From NCBI GenBank assembly GCA_964429815.1, contig CAYSCM010000001.1, positions 256,001-320,000 on the forward strand: DNA of 64,000 bases, in the 5' to 3' direction. The DNA comes from an uncultured Candidatus Saccharibacteria bacterium (GTDB taxonomy: Bacteria; Patescibacteriota; Minisyncoccia; Phycocordibacterales; CAYSCM01). Position 1 is the first letter of the stretch. Each line of letters starts with the position of its first letter. Below, piece after piece: positions 23,591-51,350 of this stretch. The position numbers were made by a program, and so were the translations under genes. The notes under the pieces were generated by a model. That model was not told the origin of the DNA, ran no database searches, and saw only the letters and a list, made by a program, of their open reading frames with translations.

Positions 23591-24592
23591 TTGAGGTCGC
23601 AACTCGCTCATACGTATGACGATATCATCTCGCTAGAAAATCTCCTTGCCGCATGGCAGGAATTCGTGCGCGGGAAGCGCAAAAAATGCGACGTGCAAGA
23701 GTTTCAGTTTCGGCTCGTGGACAATATTCTTGAGCTCTACCGTGACTTGAAAGAGAAAACATACACGCATGGGCCGTACCACCCTTTTAAAATAAGCGAC
23801 CCTAAACCCCGCGACATCCACAAGGCGAGCGTACGCGACCGGCTCCTCCACCACGCAATATATCGGAAACTCTATCCATTCTTCGACAAAATTTTCATTG
23901 CCGATTCGTACTCATGCAGGAAAGGCAAAGGAACACACAAGGCGATGAACCGTTTTCGTTCCTTTGCATACAAGGCGAGCTTAAATCACACAAAAACGCT
24001 TTGGGTGCTCAAGTGCGACATCAAAAAGTTCTTTGCATCAGTCGATCAGCATGTTCTCCTGGAGATTATTAGGCGCTGCATTTCTGACACCGACATCCTC
24101 TGGCTCATCGAGCGAGTCGTGCAGAGTTTCAATCCCAGCAGGGAGGGCACGGGTCTCCCGCTCGGCAATCTCACCTCGCAGCTTTTAGTGAATGTGTATA
24201 TGAACGAGTTTGACCAGTTTGTGAAGCGCACCCTCAAAGCGAAATACTACATCCGTTACGCCGATGATTTTGTGATTTTCTCGCAAGATGCGAAATGGCT
24301 CCAACAAATATGCAAATATATCAGCATATTCTTACGTGAACGGCTGAAACTCGAATTGCACCCTAATAAAGTATCGATCACAACGCTCGCATCCGGTATC
24401 GATTTTCTCGGCTGGGTGAATTTTCCTGATCATCGCGTGCTACGCACCTCGACAAAGCGGCGGATGTTGAAGCGAATGACTGGTGAGCAATCTAAAGAGA
24501 TCATCAAACCGTATTTAGGGCTTCTTCAACATGGGAACAGCAAAAAGCTGCAATTGAAAATCTTGTTTGACACAGCAGAGGCAATCAAGTAA
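23591..24592 (+). CDS. DGR-type reverse transcriptase
   Basis: 333 aa; [20 protein letters not shown] (DGR [ILV]GxxxSQ in place of group II QGxxxSP), [14 protein letters not shown] box. Confidence 0.9.
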
Positions 24593-29969: not shown

Positions 29970-30224
29970 CGGAAGCATACCGAGAAAGTCGCTGGCGAGA
30001 CGGGACGCTCTACCTCGTCGCTGCGGCGCCTTGGCGCGCGCTCGCTCGATTTCCTGCTCGAGCGCGCGCTGCCCTTCGAGCTTTTTCCGCCTTCTTTCTT
30101 TTCGTCGCTCCCACAGCGAGTGGATAGTGGTGCGCATGAAACCCTCCAAAAAACGTTTCAGCGACTATACCGCAGGTGTGCATCTGTGCAAAGTCGCCGA
30201 TACGAGCGGGGTATACTAAGGTGC

Positions 30225-32945
30225 ATGGAAAAGATGGCTGCTGTCGAGGGAGTATTTCAAACCCCCGAGGAAGAAATAGCGCATTTACGTGAGCAGCTCA
30301 CACGGCACGAGATAGCCGCGATCGTCGGAACCTCCGGGCCGCCCGAGCCGCTCCAGCAGGTAATTCGCGCCTACGCGCAAAAGCCTCCTCACGAGGTCAT
30401 ACCCGGCCCCTCCATGCTTCCCGAAGGGCGTGCAGGCGAGATCGCCCTCGAGCTAAAACCCGAGTCGCATGACGAGAAGATGGCGGAGCTTCTTGGTATT
30501 CTCCAGGAACACGGAATAAAAAACGCTCTCACGGTCGCGGAGAAACTCGGTCCCCACGTTGAAGACGATTTCCACCGTTTTTTGGTCGAGTATCTACGCG
30601 AGGGGTTTTCCGTAAAAGGGTTCCACGAAGGAGGGGCGCTCTGGCGGCCGCTCCATATGAGGCTCTATGAGGTGCGCATATCACAGAAAGAAGAGGAGGC
30701 CGGCAAGGACCTCAAGAAAGCCCTCTCAGGAATGGAACAGCTCTACGCCGCACTCCTCGCCTCCTCCGGCAAGCGTGAGTTTCGCAAAGATTTCTTTACG
30801 CTCGAGATCGCGGTCGGAAATTCCTCGGAGGATATCGTCTTCTATGTTTCCGTGCTCGAGAGCAAAGCCGACCTCCTTCAAAAGCAGACACTCGCGCTCT
30901 TTCCGGGCGCGCGGATCGAGCTCCTGCGCGATGATTATAATATTTTTAACGAAAAAGGCGCCTCACTTGCTTCCTATGGCTCTCTTGCCCGGTCGCCGGT
31001 CTATCCGCTTCGGACCTATGATGAGTTCGACCACGATCCGCTAAGTGGCATCATTGCGGCGTTCTCCCGGATGCGCAAGGAGGGCGAGGGGGCCGCGTTC
31101 CAGCTCTCCGTCTCGCCCGTCGGAGACGAGTTCAATGCACGGTTTAAAAAGGCGGCAGTAGACCTCGAGAAGGGAGTCCCCGCGCCGAAGGCGACCAGGG
31201 TCGCCCTCTCCACGGGAGAGAAAATTGTCTCCGGCATCAGCAAACTCATCGGGGGAGAGGGCAAAAAGAGCGATACCCAGAAGCCGGTCGACTCCGTTGC
31301 GCTCGAGGAGGTAAAGAAAAAAATAGGCAGCCCCATAGTTCTCGCCGGCATTCGTCTCGTCGTTTCGGCCGAAAACGAAATGCGCGCGAGCGCCATCCTC
31401 TCCGACCTTGAAGCATCGTTTGGTCAATTCAGTGCGGCCCAGGGCAACGCGCTTTCGTTCAAACGGGTCCCTCGGAAAGCCCTCACGGCATTTCTTTCCG
31501 ACTTCTCCTTTCGCTCATTCGATGAGGGGAAGGGCATGCCCCTTAGCCTGCGTGAACTCACCAGCCTCTACCACCTCTCCGGTGCAGCGCTTGTCCCCAG
31601 CCGCGAGGTGAAGCAGACGCGCTTCAAAACGGCTCCGGCGCCGCTTGAGCTTGTCGAGGAAGGGATACGCCTCGGCAGCAACCGTCATGGAGGCGAGGAG
31701 CGTCCCGTGCGGTTTGCCGATACCGATCGACTCCGCCACCTCTACGTCATAGGGCAAACGGGCACCGGCAAGTCTGTGTTCCTCAAGAACATGGTCATCC
31801 AAGATATCGCACGAGGGGCCGGGGTGTGCTACATCGATCCGCATGGCTCGGATATCGAGGAAGTGCTCGGCGCGGTGCCGCCGGAGCGCGAGGGAGACGT
31901 CATCTACTTCAATCCGGCCGATCCTGAGCGCCCCTTGGGCCTCAATATGCTCGAGTACGATGCGCGCTTCCCCGAGCAGAAAACGTTCGTAGTCAACGAG
32001 CTTCTCTCCATTTTCAATAAGCTCTTCGACATGAAGGTCGCGGGAGGGCCCGCATTCGAGCAGTACTTCAGAAATTCAGCGCTTTTGGTTATGGAGCACC
32101 CGCAAAGCGGAAACACCCTTTTTGATATCGGGCGAGTTCTTGCGGACCGCGGCTTCAGGCAGATGAAGCTTTCTCACAGCCAAAATCCAACCATCCAACA
32201 ATTTTGGCGCACCGCTGAGGAGACGACCGGCGAGCAATCGCTTGCGAACTTCGTTCCCTACATCACCAATAAGTTCGACGTCTTTACGACCAACGACATC
32301 ATGCGCCCCATCATCGCGCAGGAGCGCTCGGCGCTCAACTTCCGGGAAATAATGGACTCGAAAAAGATTCTCTTGGTGAATCTCGCCAAGGGGCGTCTCG
32401 GCGACATCAACGCGAACCTCATCGGGCTTGTGCTCGTCGGCAAAATACTCATGGCCGCGCTCTCGCGAGTCGACTCATTCGGTGCAGATCTCCCGCCGTT
32501 CTACCTCTACATTGACGAGTTTCAGAACATCACCACTGACTCCATAGTTTCCATCCTCTCAGAGGCGCGTAAGTACGGCCTTTCGCTCACCATCGCGCAT
32601 CAATTCATCAAGCAAATACAGGAAAATATCCGCGACGCGGTCTTCGGGAACGTGGGGAGCCTCTGTACATTTCGGGTTGGAAGCGACGATGCGCAAGAGC
32701 TCGAAAAACTTTTCGCGCCCACCTTCAAGGCTATGGATCTTCAAAATCTCGACAACTACAACGCGATCCTCAAACTCCTCTCCGGTGGAAAACCCATGGT
32801 GCCGTTTTCCCTCGCCACCGCAGCGCCGGCTGCGACCGACCGCGACACGGCCGCCCGCATTAAGAAATCCTCCGCGCTTCGCTTCGGGCGCCCCAAGTTC
32901 GAGATTGAAAAAGAAATTGCCGCACGCTATAGTCAGCCCCTATGA
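30225..32945 (+). CDS. large soluble P-loop ATPase with VirD4/TraG/TrwB-like C-terminal domain (type IV secretion DNA-binding domain family)
   Basis: Walker A VIGQTGTGKS, Walker B FYLYIDEFQN, TIAHQ motif; ~500-aa N-terminal domain of unknown function, no TM segments. Confidence 0.6.
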   Translation: MEKMAAVEGVFQTPEEEIAHLREQLTRHEIAAIVGTSGPPEPLQQVIRAYAQKPPHEVIPGPSMLPEGRAGEIALELKPESHDEKMAELLGILQEHGIKNALTVAEKLGPHVEDDFHRFLVEYLREGFSVKGFHEGGALWRPLHMRLYEVRISQKEEEAGKDLKKALSGMEQLYAALLASSGKREFRKDFFTLEIAVGNSSEDIVFYVSVLESKADLLQKQTLALFPGARIELLRDDYNIFNEKGASLASYGSLARSPVYPLRTYDEFDHDPLSGIIAAFSRMRKEGEGAAFQLSVSPVGDEFNARFKKAAVDLEKGVPAPKATRVALSTGEKIVSGISKLIGGEGKKSDTQKPVDSVALEEVKKKIGSPIVLAGIRLVVSAENEMRASAILSDLEASFGQFSAAQGNALSFKRVPRKALTAFLSDFSFRSFDEGKGMPLSLRELTSLYHLSGAALVPSREVKQTRFKTAPAPLELVEEGIRLGSNRHGGEERPVRFADTDRLRHLYVIGQTGTGKSVFLKNMVIQDIARGAGVCYIDPHGSDIEEVLGAVPPEREGDVIYFNPADPERPLGLNMLEYDARFPEQKTFVVNELLSIFNKLFDMKVAGGPAFEQYFRNSALLVMEHPQSGNTLFDIGRVLADRGFRQMKLSHSQNPTIQQFWRTAEETTGEQSLANFVPYITNKFDVFTTNDIMRPIIAQERSALNFREIMDSKKILLVNLAKGRLGDINANLIGLVLVGKILMAALSRVDSFGADLPPFYLYIDEFQNITTDSIVSILSEARKYGLSLTIAHQFIKQIQENIRDAVFGNVGSLCTFRVGSDDAQELEKLFAPTFKAMDLQNLDNYNAILKLLSGGKPMVPFSLATAAPAATDRDTAARIKKSSALRFGRPKFEIEKEIAARYSQPL

Positions 32946-46816: not shown

Positions 46817-47596
46817 CTACGAAGTGGAGGCGTTTTTGGGTGCCGAGCGCTTCTCTACTTCGATCGCAAGAAAGAGGGGGATCTCTTTGCGGGAGTGATC
46901 TTCGGCAGCAGCCCGTGGGCCCTTCTCGCTCACCTTGTGCGAGATCCACTCTTCAAGGCGGGTGATGGAAAGCCCTGCCGAGCGAAGTGCCTTCGTATAG
47001 TCTTGCAGCGATCGGTGAAATGAATACGTAAATTCTTTCGCCGCCGAACCCGGGTGCGTATCTATTTCGATCTTCGCGGACGAAAGATAGGCATCGATTC
47101 TGCGATACTGCACCCTTTCTTTCTCATCGTAGCCCCAAGAACTTTTTTTCGGGATACGAAAGGCGGGATGATTAAGGACAAAGATAAAACGCCCCGTTTT
47201 CGTCAGCACGCGTGCCACCTCCGCAAACACCGGGGGAAGCGATTGCATATTTTGAAGCGCAAGGACGCACAGCACGACATCAAAAGAAGCGTCGGCGGCA
47301 AAGGAGAGGTGTGTCGCATTGGCAATATGAAAGGGTATCTTCGGTGAGGCAATTTTCGCCCGTTCGATAAGGGAAGGTGAGAGATCACACCCAACAATCG
47401 TTTTGGCGTTTTGTGCGAAAGCTCTCGTGAAGTATCCTTCTCCGCAAGCAAGATCAAGCACGGCCTCGGCCTTGTCGAGCTCGAGGATACGCTTGAGATT
47501 GGGGAGAAGCACTCTCGCGTGGTAGGTATCCCCCTCCTCGAGGTGTTGCCCGTACCAATCCGCGACATTTTCCCATGACGTGTCTTTCTTTTTCAT
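46817..47596 (-). CDS. class I SAM-dependent methyltransferase
   Basis: VLDLACGEGYFT motif I. Confidence 0.8.
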   Translation of the reverse strand: MKKKDTSWENVADWYGQHLEEGDTYHARVLLPNLKRILELDKAEAVLDLACGEGYFTRAFAQNAKTIVGCDLSPSLIERAKIASPKIPFHIANATHLSFAADASFDVVLCVLALQNMQSLPPVFAEVARVLTKTGRFIFVLNHPAFRIPKKSSWGYDEKERVQYRRIDAYLSSAKIEIDTHPGSAAKEFTYSFHRSLQDYTKALRSAGLSITRLEEWISHKVSEKGPRAAAEDHSRKEIPLFLAIEVEKRSAPKNASTS

Positions 47597-48183
47597 CTCT
47601 TTTCCAAAACAGCGATCACACGCTCGTACAGAGTGTCGATGGGGGAGGCTTTTATGAGTAAGAAATTGTTGGATTCTGCTTGTTTTTTGATCTTATTTCC
47701 GTATGTGTAGTGATACAGGGCATCTTTCTTTGCTCTCTCTCCTTCCTTATTACCACGCTTGCGCAGAGTCTGTCTCTCATAAATGGGCTCGACTTCGTCG
47801 TAAAGGAAGAGTGCCTTTATTTGGATCTAGTCTCTCGTGGCCAATAGATCGGGAATAATCCCATCACCTTCGAAAATTACCTCTTCATTGCATCGTATAT
47901 GTTTCGAAAGGAGTGTATTGAGAGAAGGCCATACTGCGTGGCCAACATCGAGTAATTTCTGAGCGAAAACCTCGGCAGAAAAATCTTCAAGATAATTTTG
48001 GTGATCGACAAACGTAAACAATGCTGGAGACCTTGAGCTGTCGGCCACTTCGCGGATCGCAATTCGTATGTCGTCTATCTCGGTCAGGGGAATCTGATAT
48101 TTATTTGCAATCTGTCGAGCCAAATACGATTTTCCTACGCCGGAACTTCCGCCAATAAGGAGGACTGTCCATTCTTTCTCCAT
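47593..48183 (-). pseudogene. P-loop kinase/ATPase gene interrupted by a single in-frame TAG (47824-47826)
   Basis: GGSSGVGKS Walker A; reading frame continues uninterrupted for 76 codons after TAG and ends in ATGA overlap with methyltransferase start. Confidence 0.55.
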
Positions 48184-48204
48184 CCTTCAATTATAAGGCG
48201 AGCT

Positions 48205-48288
48205 ACTCTGGATTCAGAAAACCGTCGTCAATCCCCATAAGGGTATTTTAGCGCTTCTAAAGACGACTTGTTGAGGCTCTCAGGTCGC
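48205..48288. repeat. intergenic repeat family, copy A
   Basis: shares ggattca..tcaatcccc..gggtatttt..gacttgttgaggc.ctc.ggtcg with copies B and C. Confidence 0.5.
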
Positions 48289-48656
48289 TAAGATTTATGC
48301 ACCGCTTCAAGATTGTGGCCGTTGGGGTCAATTACAAACGCAGCAAAATATCCAGGCTCATAATCGCGCAGGCCGGGAGCACCATTATCAGTCGCGCCAC
48401 GGGTAAGTGCAATTTTGTAAAATTCCTCAACGGCCTGCCTGCTCTTTGCGGTCAGGGCTATGTGTACGGATTTTGAAAGGGGCATGTCCACTCCGGCCTG
48501 GCTTATTTCGAGCATGTCGTGAGGGTTAGACCCAAAGCCAACTACGACACCTTCAATTTCAAATACGACATTGTACCCGAGTGCCCCAAGTACCGCTTCG
48601 TAAAACAAGCGGTTCTTTGCGAAATCTGTTACTTTAATTTGTACGTGGTCAAACAT
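48288..48656 (-). CDS. VOC/glyoxalase family protein
   Basis: MFDHVQIKVTDFAKNRLFYEAVLG glyoxalase pattern. Confidence 0.7.
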   Translation of the reverse strand: MFDHVQIKVTDFAKNRLFYEAVLGALGYNVVFEIEGVVVGFGSNPHDMLEISQAGVDMPLSKSVHIALTAKSRQAVEEFYKIALTRGATDNGAPGLRDYEPGYFAAFVIDPNGHNLEAVHKS

Positions 48657-48685
48657 ACTTACATTATAGTCGAGTGTTGATACCC

Positions 48686-48803
48686 GGATCTGTCCGATAC
48701 AAAAGTCTTCGGGCGGGCCGCTCGGGATTCAAACTTTTAAGCTCAATAAACACGAGGGTATTTTTGGCCCATCTTGGTGCAATCTGTTGAGGCCTTCGAG
48801 TCG
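48686..48803. repeat. intergenic repeat family, copy B (contains both sub-motifs)
   Basis: ggatctgtccgatacaaaag..cgggcgg + ctcgggattcaaacttttaagctcaat..gggtattttt..ctgttgaggccttcgagtcgc. Confidence 0.5.
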
Positions 48804-48863
48804 CAAAGGTTTCTTTGGGATTATCCGAATTGAACTCCGGGAAGATCCTTTCGACGTAACCTG

Positions 48864-49553
48864 CTACCATTGTCCGAGATCAAGAACCGGCTTGCCGATA
48901 ACCGCGTTTTGTGCGACGGTCCAAGTGGAGGTTGCGGACGGATTGTCCTTGGAAAGATACCACTCGCCGCTCTGAATTGTCGTTCCGTTTATTATTTCAC
49001 CAGGAACGCCAATAACCCGAGCGATGATATTGTGCGAACTTTGGCCAGAACCAACTCTGGCAAGAATGATATCGCCTTTTTGTACGGAGCGATCATATTT
49101 TTCAATTATGAGATATTCATTTGCCGGATAAGTTGGCGCCATCGAATCCCCGCTCATCAGAAAAGGTTCGAGGAGAAAACCCCGAAAAGCTACAATGATT
49201 ATAATCGCAAACAACCAGAACGCGACAGAGCCGGTGAGGAGGGCAGGTAAAAATTTCCAGAAGGTGACGGCAAAATATTTCCGATACAGAAAATACGCAA
49301 CAGCGTAGAAAACTAAAGTTATCGAGAGCTTAAAGATGCCTGCTCCAAGCCAGAAAACCAGCACGCCCACGATGGCTGACGCGACTGTGGAAAGAAAAAG
49401 AATTATTGCAACGCGCCCAAAAGTGCTTGTTTTGATCCCATACAATTTATTTGCCAAATTCACAAACTCGATGCTACCAATGAAAAACAGTCCGCCAACA
49501 ATCAGTATGGGCACAAGAATAGTAAGACTCATGTTAAGATTATACCTTTCCAA
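48864..49553 (-). CDS. lepB: signal peptidase I with extended N-terminal TM region
   Basis: SGDSMAPTY catalytic Ser box, ...GDNR-like region. Confidence 0.75.
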   Translation of the reverse strand: MERYNLNMSLTILVPILIVGGLFFIGSIEFVNLANKLYGIKTSTFGRVAIILFLSTVASAIVGVLVFWLGAGIFKLSITLVFYAVAYFLYRKYFAVTFWKFLPALLTGSVAFWLFAIIIIVAFRGFLLEPFLMSGDSMAPTYPANEYLIIEKYDRSVQKGDIILARVGSGQSSHNIIARVIGVPGEIINGTTIQSGEWYLSKDNPSATSTWTVAQNAVIGKPVLDLGQW

Positions 49554-49584
49554 AAAGGTTACTTACATTGTTCACTCAAACCCT

Positions 49585-49680
49585 CAGGTCTACCGATAAA
49601 AAGTTGTCAATGCGGAGAGGGCCGGTCTAGAACTCGGCCTCGTCAAGCAGTGTAAGGGTTTCTTGGCAACTTGGCGACCA
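49585..49680. repeat. intergenic repeat family, copy E
   Basis: caggtctaccgataaaaagttgtcaatgcggagagggccggtctag matches copies B/D sub-motif 1. Confidence 0.45.
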
Positions 49681-49721
49681 CGCGTTTTCAGGGAGAACGG
49701 TCGGGAGCTGTTGAATGCGAC

Positions 49722-50294
49722 CTAATGTAATCTCTTACCAGATCGCATCATCGCGAGAAGTACTTCCATACGGCGAGCTCTCGTTTCTAGCCTTTTAGCC
49801 GTTTGGAGTCTCCACGCAATCGCGTAGGTATTCACACGATTGAGTGACTTGAAAAAATCGTAAGCCTTCGGATCTTTTTTTACCGCTTCAACAAAATCCG
49901 CGGGGACCTCCGCCGTACTCCCGACGTCATAGGCTCGATCCCATCGGCCATCCTTTTTTGCCGCGTCTATCTCCCTCTTCCCAGCAGCGGTCATGCGGCC
50001 TTCTTTAAGTAGACGAAGGACGTGCTCGCGATTCCGCTTCGACCACATGCTTTGTGGACGGCGTGGCGTAAATTTTTGCAAGAATGAACCGGCATCATAG
50101 GCCTTCTTTTGCCCGTCAATCCATCCATAACAAAGCGCTTCATCGAGGGCTTCATCATAGGTTGCGGATTTGTGGCCGGAACCTTTTTTGTAAATACGGA
50201 GCCAAACACCTTCCGAACGCGAGTAATGCTTTGAAAGCCACGAACGCCAACTCGCAGCCATAGCAAACAATTTGATCGGAATTTTTTTCGCCAT
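49722..50294 (-). CDS. YdeI/OmpD-associated family protein
   Basis: pattern typical of PF13376 (LRIYKKGSG..., YAIAWRLQTAKR). Confidence 0.55.
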   Translation of the reverse strand: MAKKIPIKLFAMAASWRSWLSKHYSRSEGVWLRIYKKGSGHKSATYDEALDEALCYGWIDGQKKAYDAGSFLQKFTPRRPQSMWSKRNREHVLRLLKEGRMTAAGKREIDAAKKDGRWDRAYDVGSTAEVPADFVEAVKKDPKAYDFFKSLNRVNTYAIAWRLQTAKRLETRARRMEVLLAMMRSGKRLH

Positions 50295-50310
50295 GAGCCA
50301 AACGTTTTGC

Positions 50311-50398
50311 GGGCCACTCGGGATTCAACTTTTAGAGGTCAATCCCCGCAAGAGTATTTTGGTGGATTCAATGCCGACTTGTTGAGGCACTCGGGTCG
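50311..50398. repeat. intergenic repeat family, copy C
   Basis: gggccactcgggattcaacttttagaggtcaatccccgcaagagtattttgg..gacttgttgaggcactcgggtcgg. Confidence 0.5.
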
Positions 50399-50436
50399 GA
50401 GTCTATAAAGCAGTGGGCTTACTAAATTGCCTGAGG

Positions 50437-51051
50437 CTACCTGGCATCTGTTTTGATCATTTTAACGATTTCCGGGAATCGCTCGATGTTGAAATGTCCG
50501 TTTTTGCTCTTGAAGATAGTTATTTGCGCAGTTGGAAGTTTTGCTCGATATTTTTCTGCGTGCGCGACTGGGACAACATCGTCATCTTTCGAGAACAGAA
50601 GGTAAAGATTCTTACAGTTCTGCTGAATCATCGAAAGGTTTTTCTTAAGCTCAAAGCCTCCGGCTAGCCTGTCGCCTGGCATGTCGTCGTCAAACGGAGG
50701 ACATACGAGATATATCGAAATTGCTTTCTTGGACAGTTTGTTTTCAGAAAGATATTTAGCGAGGAAAATGCCACCGAGAGAGCCACCAATGAGAATGAAA
50801 GGTCGTCTAAGGAGCAGGAGATAATTCTCGAACATAATCTTCCAATCACGATACTGCGAATTGTCCTGCAGCGGCATTCGTGGAATCGTCACAACAAACT
50901 TGGCGCCCAGATCTTTTTGGAGATTATCGCTGTTCCAGCGGATCCGTTTACCCAGCGTTACCTTCTTAGTTTTAAGATATTTGACATATTCCTTGTCGGA
51001 CACAAAAGTATTGCCACCATGGATATAGAGGACATCTATTTTCCTTTTCAT
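50437..51051 (-). CDS. alpha/beta hydrolase (YdeN/RBBP9-like serine hydrolase)
   Basis: GGSLGG nucleophile elbow; AT-richer than flanks. Confidence 0.6.
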   Translation of the reverse strand: MKRKIDVLYIHGGNTFVSDKEYVKYLKTKKVTLGKRIRWNSDNLQKDLGAKFVVTIPRMPLQDNSQYRDWKIMFENYLLLLRRPFILIGGSLGGIFLAKYLSENKLSKKAISIYLVCPPFDDDMPGDRLAGGFELKKNLSMIQQNCKNLYLLFSKDDDVVPVAHAEKYRAKLPTAQITIFKSKNGHFNIERFPEIVKMIKTDAR

Positions 51052-51087
51052 ATTAGAACTATAGCAATAATGAGGGCCAAGATCTTC

Positions 51088-51150
51088 GGGTCTGTCCGAT
51101 AATAAAGTTTTCGGGCGGAGAGGGTGGGATTAGGTCACAAGTATTTTTCT
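51088..51150. repeat. intergenic repeat family, copy D
   Basis: gggtctgtccgataataaagttttcgggcggagagggtgggattaggtcacaagtattttt. Confidence 0.45.
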
Positions 51151-51261
51151 GCTGAAAAATCTCGCGACCCCGCCTCGCGCCAGCGCTGCGGCTTTCGAAT
51201 CCCATCCCTACCGCAATGATGAATCGCGCAGACGCCTCCCCGGGCGTCTTTGCGAATCATT

Positions 51262-51350
51262 GCGGAGAGGGTGGGATTTGAACCCACGGTCCAGTTTCCC
51301 GGACTCCGCATTTCGAGTGCGGTGCCTTCGACCAACTCAGCCACCTCTCC
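51262..51350 (-). tRNA. tRNA-Ser (anticodon CGA)
   Basis: GGAGAGG acceptor, anticodon loop CTCGAAA, long variable arm GTCCGGGAAACTGGACC, T-arm GTGGG TTCAAAT CCCAC; followed by long imperfect hairpin 51205-51260. Confidence 0.85.

Follow-up and report, generated by a model that had tools for sequence, protein, structure and literature searches.

The 64-kb window examined here (the whole stretch of DNA, with positions counted from its first letter) contains, at 47.6-51.1 kb, a run of five minus-strand genes whose intergenic spacers carry a family of short repeats. The genes lie directly 3' of a tRNA-Ser(CGA) gene on the same strand, and a Pfam scan places them in different families (Table 1). 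Their segment also stands out in base composition, with a GC content of 0.43-0.51 across 47.5-51.1 kb against 0.53-0.61 on either side; we refer to it as the island. An original prediction had assigned the repeats to two sub-motifs distributed over five copies, A to E, and had considered a shared promoter, a regulatory RNA or a mobile repeat as their source. That account did not take in the tRNA gene and its partial copies, which proved to be the main clue.

A repeat family confined to the island

The repeats can be described with two units. Sub-motif 2 corresponds to a unit of ~91 nt, here called X, in which a left-arm body of ~74 nt ends in a 17-nt core; sub-motif 1 consists of a 17-nt copy of the tRNA end joined to a conserved 26-nt arm, here called sm1. 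Read on the gene strand, the spacers are laid out as a left arm, a 17-nt core resembling the tRNA 3' end, and a right arm that is whole, truncated or absent, an arrangement that resembles attP/attR junctions. Copy B is the sole complete unit, with left arm, core and sm1 all present. Left arm and core are found in copies A and C, with sm1 cut to ~10 nt in C and missing in A. Copy D combines a tRNA-like core and sm1 with a left arm that is marginal in a search with a hidden Markov model (HMM) of X (E = 6.8), and its TCAACA-like block follows directly after the YdeI stop codon. In copy E, core and sm1 are present; alignment with MAFFT suggested that the left part of E might be a diverged X, which the HMM did not support.

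The statement that all five spacers carry a related element was borne out by repeat finding, alignment and shuffling. Sub-motif 1 had been placed in B, D and E and sub-motif 2 in A, B and C, with both in B, and this distribution stands with two additions, the ~10 nt of sm1 kept in C and the marginal sub-motif 2 of D. The elements had also been said to end 20-60 nt before the start codons; the measured distances are 4-54 nt.

Pairwise identity among the X units of A, B and C is 62-71% overall and rises locally to 79% over 61 nt between A and C and 95% over 20 nt between B and C. For sub-motif 1, E and B match at 28/32 positions, and their best stretch is 28 nt at 89%; E and D align over 40 columns. 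Each of the four alignments E-B, E-D, B-C and A-C scored better than 500/500 shuffles. The identities form a mosaic: A is like C on the left, B like C at the core, and B like E on the right. Copies A, B and C keep the blocks TCAACA-N18/19-[T/A/C]AAAAT, separated by linkers that vary in sequence and are constant in length, and sm1 reads as an imperfect palindrome, CCGAAAA...TTATCGG. Local tandem gene duplication, which the original prediction had named as a possible source of the similarity, is excluded because the neighbouring genes are unrelated, each belonging to a different Pfam family.

We searched the window with patterns allowing up to 3 mismatches and with an HMM built from A, B and C. 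All motif matches in the 64 kb fell at 48.2-51.3 kb, with a chance expectation of 0.00-0.19, and the HMM gave no further match in the window, including at the junction between the kinase-like open reading frame (ORF) and the methyltransferase gene. Scanning 185,579 species genomes, a representative set that evidently does not include the source genome, with the X pattern returned 3 single, unrelated matches. In viral contigs, the X pattern gave 4 weak partial matches and the sm1 pattern none. A blastn comparison of the island with phage and plasmid collections yielded nothing but one short coding match, and the neighbourhoods of hydrolase and peptidase homologues, searched with the HMMs of X and sm1, contained no match.

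Table 1. Features of the island and adjoining sequence, in window coordinates except for the last row.
Feature	Coordinates	Strand	Basis or detail
tRNA-Ser(CGA) gene	51262..51350	-	ARAGORN; Rfam tRNA, 60.7 bits
P-loop kinase-like ORF	47600..48183	-	Pfam
VOC/glyoxalase-family gene	48288..48656	-	Pfam; TATAAT at 48663-48668
S26 signal-peptidase-like gene	48864..49532	-	Pfam; N-terminal membrane region; TATAAT at 49539-49544
YdeI/OmdA-family gene	49722..50294	-	Pfam
Ser_hydrolase-family alpha/beta hydrolase gene	50437..51051	-	Pfam; TATAGT at 51058-51063
Copy A (X unit)	48198..48288	-	core 48198-48214; starts at last base of VOC stop codon
Copy B	48687..48804	-	X 48713-48804; core 48713-48729; sm1 48687-48712
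Copy C	50299..50399	-	X 50309-50399; core 50309-50325; first ~10 nt of sm1 50299-50308
Copy D	49587..49721	-	TCAACA-like block 49707-49721; tRNA-end copy 49607-49633; sm1 49587-49606
Copy E core	51115..51131	-	exact 17-nt direct repeat of tRNA-Ser 3' end, AATCCCACCCTCTCCGC
Copy E right arm (sm1)	51089..51114	-	CCGAAAACTTTATTATCGGACAGACC
Non-coding insert	51115-51261		147 nt, next to tRNA-Ser(CGA)
Near-perfect palindrome	51215..51261	-	47 nt; directly after tRNA, left part of insert
Inverted partial tRNA 3' end	51198..51214		GCGGTAGGGATGGGATT on minus strand; 14/17 complementary to core
Terminator-like hairpin and T-run	51163..51179	-	inside insert
Methyltransferase gene	46817-47596		adjoins kinase-like ORF
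Repeats of contig L131 (contig coordinates)	4864-4905, 7269-7381, 8135-8247, 10294-10335, 11031-11048		separate intergenic repeat family

Copies of the tRNA 3' end and the hairpin insert

In sub-motif 1, the 'CGGGCGGAGAGGG' half duplicates the 3' terminus of the neighbouring tRNA-Ser gene. The 17-nt core AATCCCACCCTCTCCGC spans the tRNA from its T-loop to one base past the discriminator, and sm1 directly adjoins the tRNA-end copy in both D and E. Copy E holds this core as an exact repeat enclosing 147 nt, all non-coding. Copy D holds the tRNA 3' end together with its first flanking bases in diverged form (21/27 positions match), and this repeat encloses the hydrolase and YdeI genes. No repeat of the tRNA-Ser type was found where the island ends on its far left.

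The cores of the X units have the same length as the tRNA core. In B and C the X core reads AATCCCGAG[T/C]GGCCCGC, 17 nt, and shares its first 6 and last 4 bases with the tRNA core, giving the common pattern AATCCC-7 nt-CCGC in E, B and C; A and D are more diverged. In B, moreover, the X core stands before sm1 in a register identical to that of the tRNA core. We considered whether A, B and C might be degenerate whole tRNAs and ruled this out, as neither ARAGORN nor Rfam gave a match.

The sequence between the tRNA gene and copy E has a structure of its own. Within this 147-nt insert, the inverted copy of the tRNA end can pair with the direct copy, and the fold of 51110-51225 has an energy of -30.1 kcal/mol (z -4.6), a value that none of 200 shuffles reached. 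The insert had no match in Rfam. Three unrelated metagenome contigs, L101, L115 and L071, carry a similar insert 3' of tRNA-Ser(CGA), each in the order inverted partial tRNA end, GC-rich hairpins, direct partial tRNA end; the element of L101 folds at -45 kcal/mol (z -4.65). A further contig, L127, has an identical 88-nt tRNA and no insert, and its 3' flank aligns to L101 exactly past the duplicated core, 169 nt downstream. This pair of an empty and an occupied site identifies the end of tRNA-Ser(CGA) as a genuine insertion target and shows that inserts of the hairpin type duplicate the last ~20 nt of the tRNA. The hairpin insert looks like a small site-specific mobile element.

Proposed serial insertion at the tRNA end and competing explanations

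In four of the five island genes, a TATAAT or TATAGT hexamer precedes the ATG by exactly 6 nt; the TATAAT of the kinase-like ORF, at 48190-48195, lies 2 nt past copy A. Leaderless-type spacing of this kind is frequent throughout the window, and the hexamer of most host genes is TATACT. This hexamer stands 6-7 nt before many starts, for example those at 628, 30225, 44956, 52116, 56695, 60052, 60594 and 61170, suggesting from the sequence that leaderless transcripts may be common in this genome. The -10 boxes of the island lie outside the repeats, at a distance from them that varies from 2 to 42 nt.

We put at roughly one half the probability that 47.6-51.3 kb is a small island linked to tRNA-Ser(CGA), built by serial site-specific insertion and now decayed, with the repeats as its internal junctions. 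In this account a tyrosine-type recombinase, whose gene lies elsewhere or has been lost, would have repeatedly joined circular DNA bearing a matching core into the tRNA 3' end or, alternatively, into an already displaced copy of that end, and each insertion would have shifted older modules away from the tRNA. The junction plan of left arm, core and right arm would then be the P-O-P' layout of an attP site: tandem ('accretion') integration would leave attL at the tRNA, attP-like P-O-P' sites between inserts and attR at the distal boundary. The arms could be alike since the inserts were related or later recombined together, as the mosaic identities suggest. In the latest event, the 147-nt hairpin insert would have displaced the exact 17-nt copy of the tRNA end, and the genes would be transcribed from ordinary leaderless-type -10 boxes outside the repeats. 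Around the directly observed anatomy, tRNA copies, compositional break, lack of an integrase among the scanned ORFs and hairpin-insert polymorphism elsewhere, we infer the recombinase and the order of events. Reading the repeats as insertion scars agrees with how the spacers are built from arms and core, with tRNA copies both exact and decayed, with the low GC content and accessory genes of the segment, and with the proven use of this tRNA end as a target. The -10 hexamers of the island, which differ from the TATACT of most host genes, the mosaic identities and the confinement of the repeats to this part of the window also count in its favour.

Several observations weigh against serial insertion. 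Genes are enclosed by the diverged repeat of D, and the exact 17-nt repeat bounds no more than 147 nt of non-coding sequence. The cores of A, B and C agree with the resident tRNA at just 8-10 of 17 positions and are for that reason not derivable from it; three of the five cores depart from the resident tRNA, and they do so in the central seven bases. A tRNA bearing the 3' end of the X core was found neither in viral contigs nor among the 198 tRNAs of the fetched loci. The HMMs of X and sm1 detected neither arm at 120 other metagenomic tRNA-Ser loci, which share the 3' 29-mer of the tRNA and come from unrelated genomes. No integrase, transposase or other mobility gene appeared in a Pfam scan that took in 30 ORFs of the window, the island included. 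Four assemblies of the population are identical (100%), with no sign of present-day variation and none in cassette content, and the collections yielded no relative whose site was empty or carried other cargo. At 0.6-1 kb and one gene each, the modules fall far short of typical integrative elements in size. Finally, sm1 follows both types of core, so one simple crossover point cannot explain all junctions; together with the mosaic identities, this means that later recombination between junctions, or assembly of the array elsewhere, must be assumed.

The broad idea of the original prediction, that the repeat spread by mobility or recombination at the DNA level, is supported; a core promoter, a regulatory RNA or a miniature inverted-repeat transposable element (MITE) is not. 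As to the promoter, the varying distance to -10 boxes that lie outside the repeats speaks against it, and promoter-like sites number 2 against 4.5 expected; neither these nor terminator-like sites are enriched. As to the -35 boxes said to lie within the repeats, TTGAC (the GGGGATTGAC motif) in copy A stands 30 nt upstream of the -10 box of its gene, a distance too great for a -35 element. That the units form a structured cis-regulatory RNA or 5' untranslated element common to the downstream genes is scarcely credible: they do lie upstream of genes, and 6/21 predicted pairs show compensatory change in a three-sequence alignment (three being too few for a covariation test), but the A/B/C consensus folds at only -7.8 kcal/mol, the single-strand folding energies stay within the range of shuffles (z -1.9 to +1.45), an Rfam scan of the repeats gave no match at the gathering score or E<=10, and -10 boxes 6 nt before the ATG imply leaderless mRNAs without the units. 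A different kind of regulatory reading deserves more weight, although we judge it somewhat unlikely. In this reading the repeats are intergenic modules, with X as a terminator, an upstream promoter element or both and sm1 as an operator-like site, which spread from spacer to spacer through homologous or illegitimate recombination, after the manner of 'putative mobile promoters' or the promoter-stem-loop cassettes of T4-type phages, and the tRNA copies are a coincidental scar. The units do come after one gene's stop codon and before the -10 box of the gene that follows, and A and D start at the stop codon itself; A, B and C have conserved blocks with linkers of constant length, copy A scores promoter-like and sm1 is imperfectly palindromic. 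In unit C, the central part resembles the 3' flank of the closest hydrolase homologue (contig L141) and a hairpin beside a peptidase homologue, and another contig with a hydrolase homologue, L131, has an intergenic repeat family of its own. Homologous upstream regions before non-homologous genes are also common in prokaryotes (PMC3488235). Against this reading, the spacing to the -10 box or ATG varies and the working -10 boxes lie outside the repeats, promoter-like and terminator-like sites are not enriched, no stable or conserved fold was found, and the remaining ~60 kb of the window, with its many promoters, lacks the motif. The in-register mimicry of the tRNA 3' end and the confinement to a low-GC segment stay unexplained by it. 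The likeness to putative mobile promoters lies in homologous non-coding sequence upstream of non-homologous genes in one genome; the threshold set for those is >=80% identity over >=50 nt (PMC3488235), and the best value here, 79% over 61 nt, falls just under it. The present copies differ from them in having the -10 boxes outside the repeats and in being clustered at one tRNA-linked locus, and any promoter function would be a prediction.

The remaining explanations invoke mobility of another kind. X as a MITE-like non-autonomous transposable element that landed in several spacers is highly improbable. It is short, non-coding and present in three copies, and in C imperfect 10-nt direct repeats (CCCGAGTGCC / CCCGAGTGGCC) flank a TCAAC...GTTGA pair; these direct repeats, however, are imperfect identically in all copies, which makes them part of X and not fresh target duplications. 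The inverted termini measure just 5 nt, the copies share one orientation in adjacent spacers, and there is no other, dispersed copy in the 64 kb or the scanned collections. Integron cassette arrays offer another comparison: their units are bounded by attC sites, and clusters of attC sites without an integrase are known as CALINs. The island shares with them one gene per unit, uniform orientation, a site of 60-140 nt, similarity among the sites and detoxification-type cargo. It is conceivable, but quite unlikely, that the island is an active integron-like platform, at which single-gene cassettes are inserted and excised at the tRNA-Ser site by a recombinase encoded elsewhere. Each module has one gene in the one orientation followed by a 90-130-nt site; VOC, hydrolase and YdeI genes are typical cargo of cassette arrays; an R''-like box stands near the 5' end of the site (CCTCAAC in A, B and C, ATTCAAC in D), where attC sites have RYYYAAC; and the strongly folding hairpin insert mimics a duplex tRNA end and is polymorphic at the same tRNA elsewhere. 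Against this, the sites are not imperfect hairpins, A, B, C and D folding no better than shuffles as DNA on both strands (z -2.4 to +1.45); the GTTRRRY box at the 3' side is present, as GTTGAAT, in C alone and is missing in A (TTCTGAA), B (GTTTGAA) and D (GTTCTAG); their cores resemble the end of a tRNA; every gene is served by a promoter of its own; and cassette content is constant in the four assemblies. No intI-like gene was found among the scanned ORFs, the immediate neighbours of the island being the tRNA-Ser and ComF-like genes and the methyltransferase gene, and hydrolase homologues elsewhere come without these sites. An extension of this idea, which we regard as improbable, is that small-genome Patescibacteria-type bacteria use a tRNA-anchored integron-like platform, on which single-gene modules are linked through ~130-nt sites around a 17-nt mimic of a tRNA 3' end and are moved by a recombinase encoded elsewhere; the hairpin insert, lacking cargo, would be its minimal form and might recombine as folded single-stranded DNA.

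For the serial-insertion account, the nearest known systems are additive islands and cis-mobilizable elements (CIMEs). Additive islands at tRNAs have direct repeats of 16-20 bp, form mosaics of several cassettes and lose their mobility genes rapidly (PMC6917214); CIMEs are integrase-less remnants from ICE/IME families that retain att sites and accrete in tandem (PMC5704250). The present island is like both in its position at a tRNA 3' end, 17-nt direct repeat, low GC and accessory cargo, in its att-like junctions between segments and in the absence of mobility genes, as after decay (PMC5704250; PMC6917214). It is unlike them in that its modules are single genes of 0.6-1 kb and not kilobase-scale elements, three of its five cores mismatch the resident tRNA, no integrase was seen among the scanned ORFs, and neither a donor element nor an empty site was found in the collections. 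In the tycheposon islands of Prochlorococcus, serial integration at one tRNA leaves partial tRNAs, scattered older partial tRNAs and degraded elements (10.1101/2020.12.28.424599). Similarities with these are a streamlined genome, an island beside a tRNA, and successive integrations set apart by partial tRNA copies only, with older partial tRNAs further in (10.1101/2020.12.28.424599). A tyrosine recombinase and replication genes are part of tycheposons, and none was seen here; the host lineage differs as well, and the conserved arms that flank the core in the present island are not described for tycheposons. Gene gain linked to a tRNA is familiar, and what is unusual here is that each proposed insert has one gene and that both arms are kept at most junctions.

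Gene gain and loss in ultra-small, often symbiotic bacteria are little documented, and recognisable mobile elements have seldom been reported in them. In a tRNA-linked island that keeps a junction between one gene and the next, the gain of genes at one hotspot could be read off the sequence, and the 17-nt core, sm1 and X are concrete sequences to seek in other such genomes. The hairpin insert provides a clean comparison of empty and occupied sites at the same tRNA and lends itself to a direct test for site-specific mobility. Should the repeats be no more than decayed scars, the finding amounts to ordinary island biology.

Relatives, surroundings and side observations

The host appears, from the names of matches and gene content, to be an isolated Patescibacteria-type lineage. 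The best relative of ComF, encoded by the adjacent core gene, is 41% identical. Hydrolase homologues 60-82% identical occur in many contigs of Parcubacteria-type bacteria (named ones come from Kaiserbacteria, Wildermuthbacteria, Pacebacteria/Paceibacterota and Vogelbacteria), in differing neighbourhoods and with DNA similarity that stops at the ends of the ORF; for the peptidase, one homologue was found, at 47% identity. The cargo looks accessory because hydrolase homologues are scattered over such contexts, ComF has no relative above 41% and the peptidase has a single one at 47%. VOC and kinase genes that stand beside hydrolase homologues elsewhere were examined and are not orthologues of the island genes. 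Short-read contigs of the organism end exactly at the tRNA 3' end. Population heterogeneity was rejected as the cause of these breaks, since the 29-mer at the break is common to >120 unrelated contigs and one assembly reads through it.

Spacer sequences around the relatives of the cargo genes show some features of their own. On L131, with an 80%-identical hydrolase homologue, a different family of 42-102-nt intergenic repeats lies between same-strand genes (Table 1); these repeats have a common left block that ends at a fixed point, beyond which the copies diverge. L138 (at ~919-937) and L141 (at ~790-808), from different samples, share the 19-mer GGGCGCAG[G/A]AATCGAACTG, in the 3' flank of the peptidase homologue on L138 and of the closest hydrolase homologue on L141. 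It reads as the reverse complement of a tRNA segment from T-loop to acceptor, and there is no tRNA gene at either place. The centre of unit C matches the L141 flank at 27/30 nt (3/1000 shuffles) and resembles the hairpin after the peptidase homologue on L138 (7/1000 shuffles), both values being uncorrected for ~20 comparisons. These likenesses suggest that spacer elements of this general kind may recur around such accessory genes, homology not being established.

Beyond tRNA-Ser, the island is followed by the ComF-like gene and a type IV pilus cluster; its other flank holds the methyltransferase gene, a cupredoxin-like gene, RecG and tRNA-Ile. The kinase-like ORF next to the methyltransferase gene has an in-frame TAG at 47827-47829, past which the frame runs ~75 codons further, and the terminal TGA of this extended frame overlaps the methyltransferase ATG. 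The ORF with its in-frame TAG is a pseudogene, contains a sequencing error or is read through.

Two ORFs elsewhere in the window also drew our attention. One, at 23591-24592 on the plus strand, matches the RVT_1 reverse-transcriptase family (E = 4e-26) and lies inside a region of ribosomal-protein and SecY genes; it could be part of a diversity-generating retroelement, a retron or a group II intron. The other, at 30120-32945 on the plus strand and ~17 kb from the island, encodes a 941-aa protein with weak matches to HerA (DUF87) and TraG-D_C, its predicted sequence resembling a coupling or translocase ATPase.

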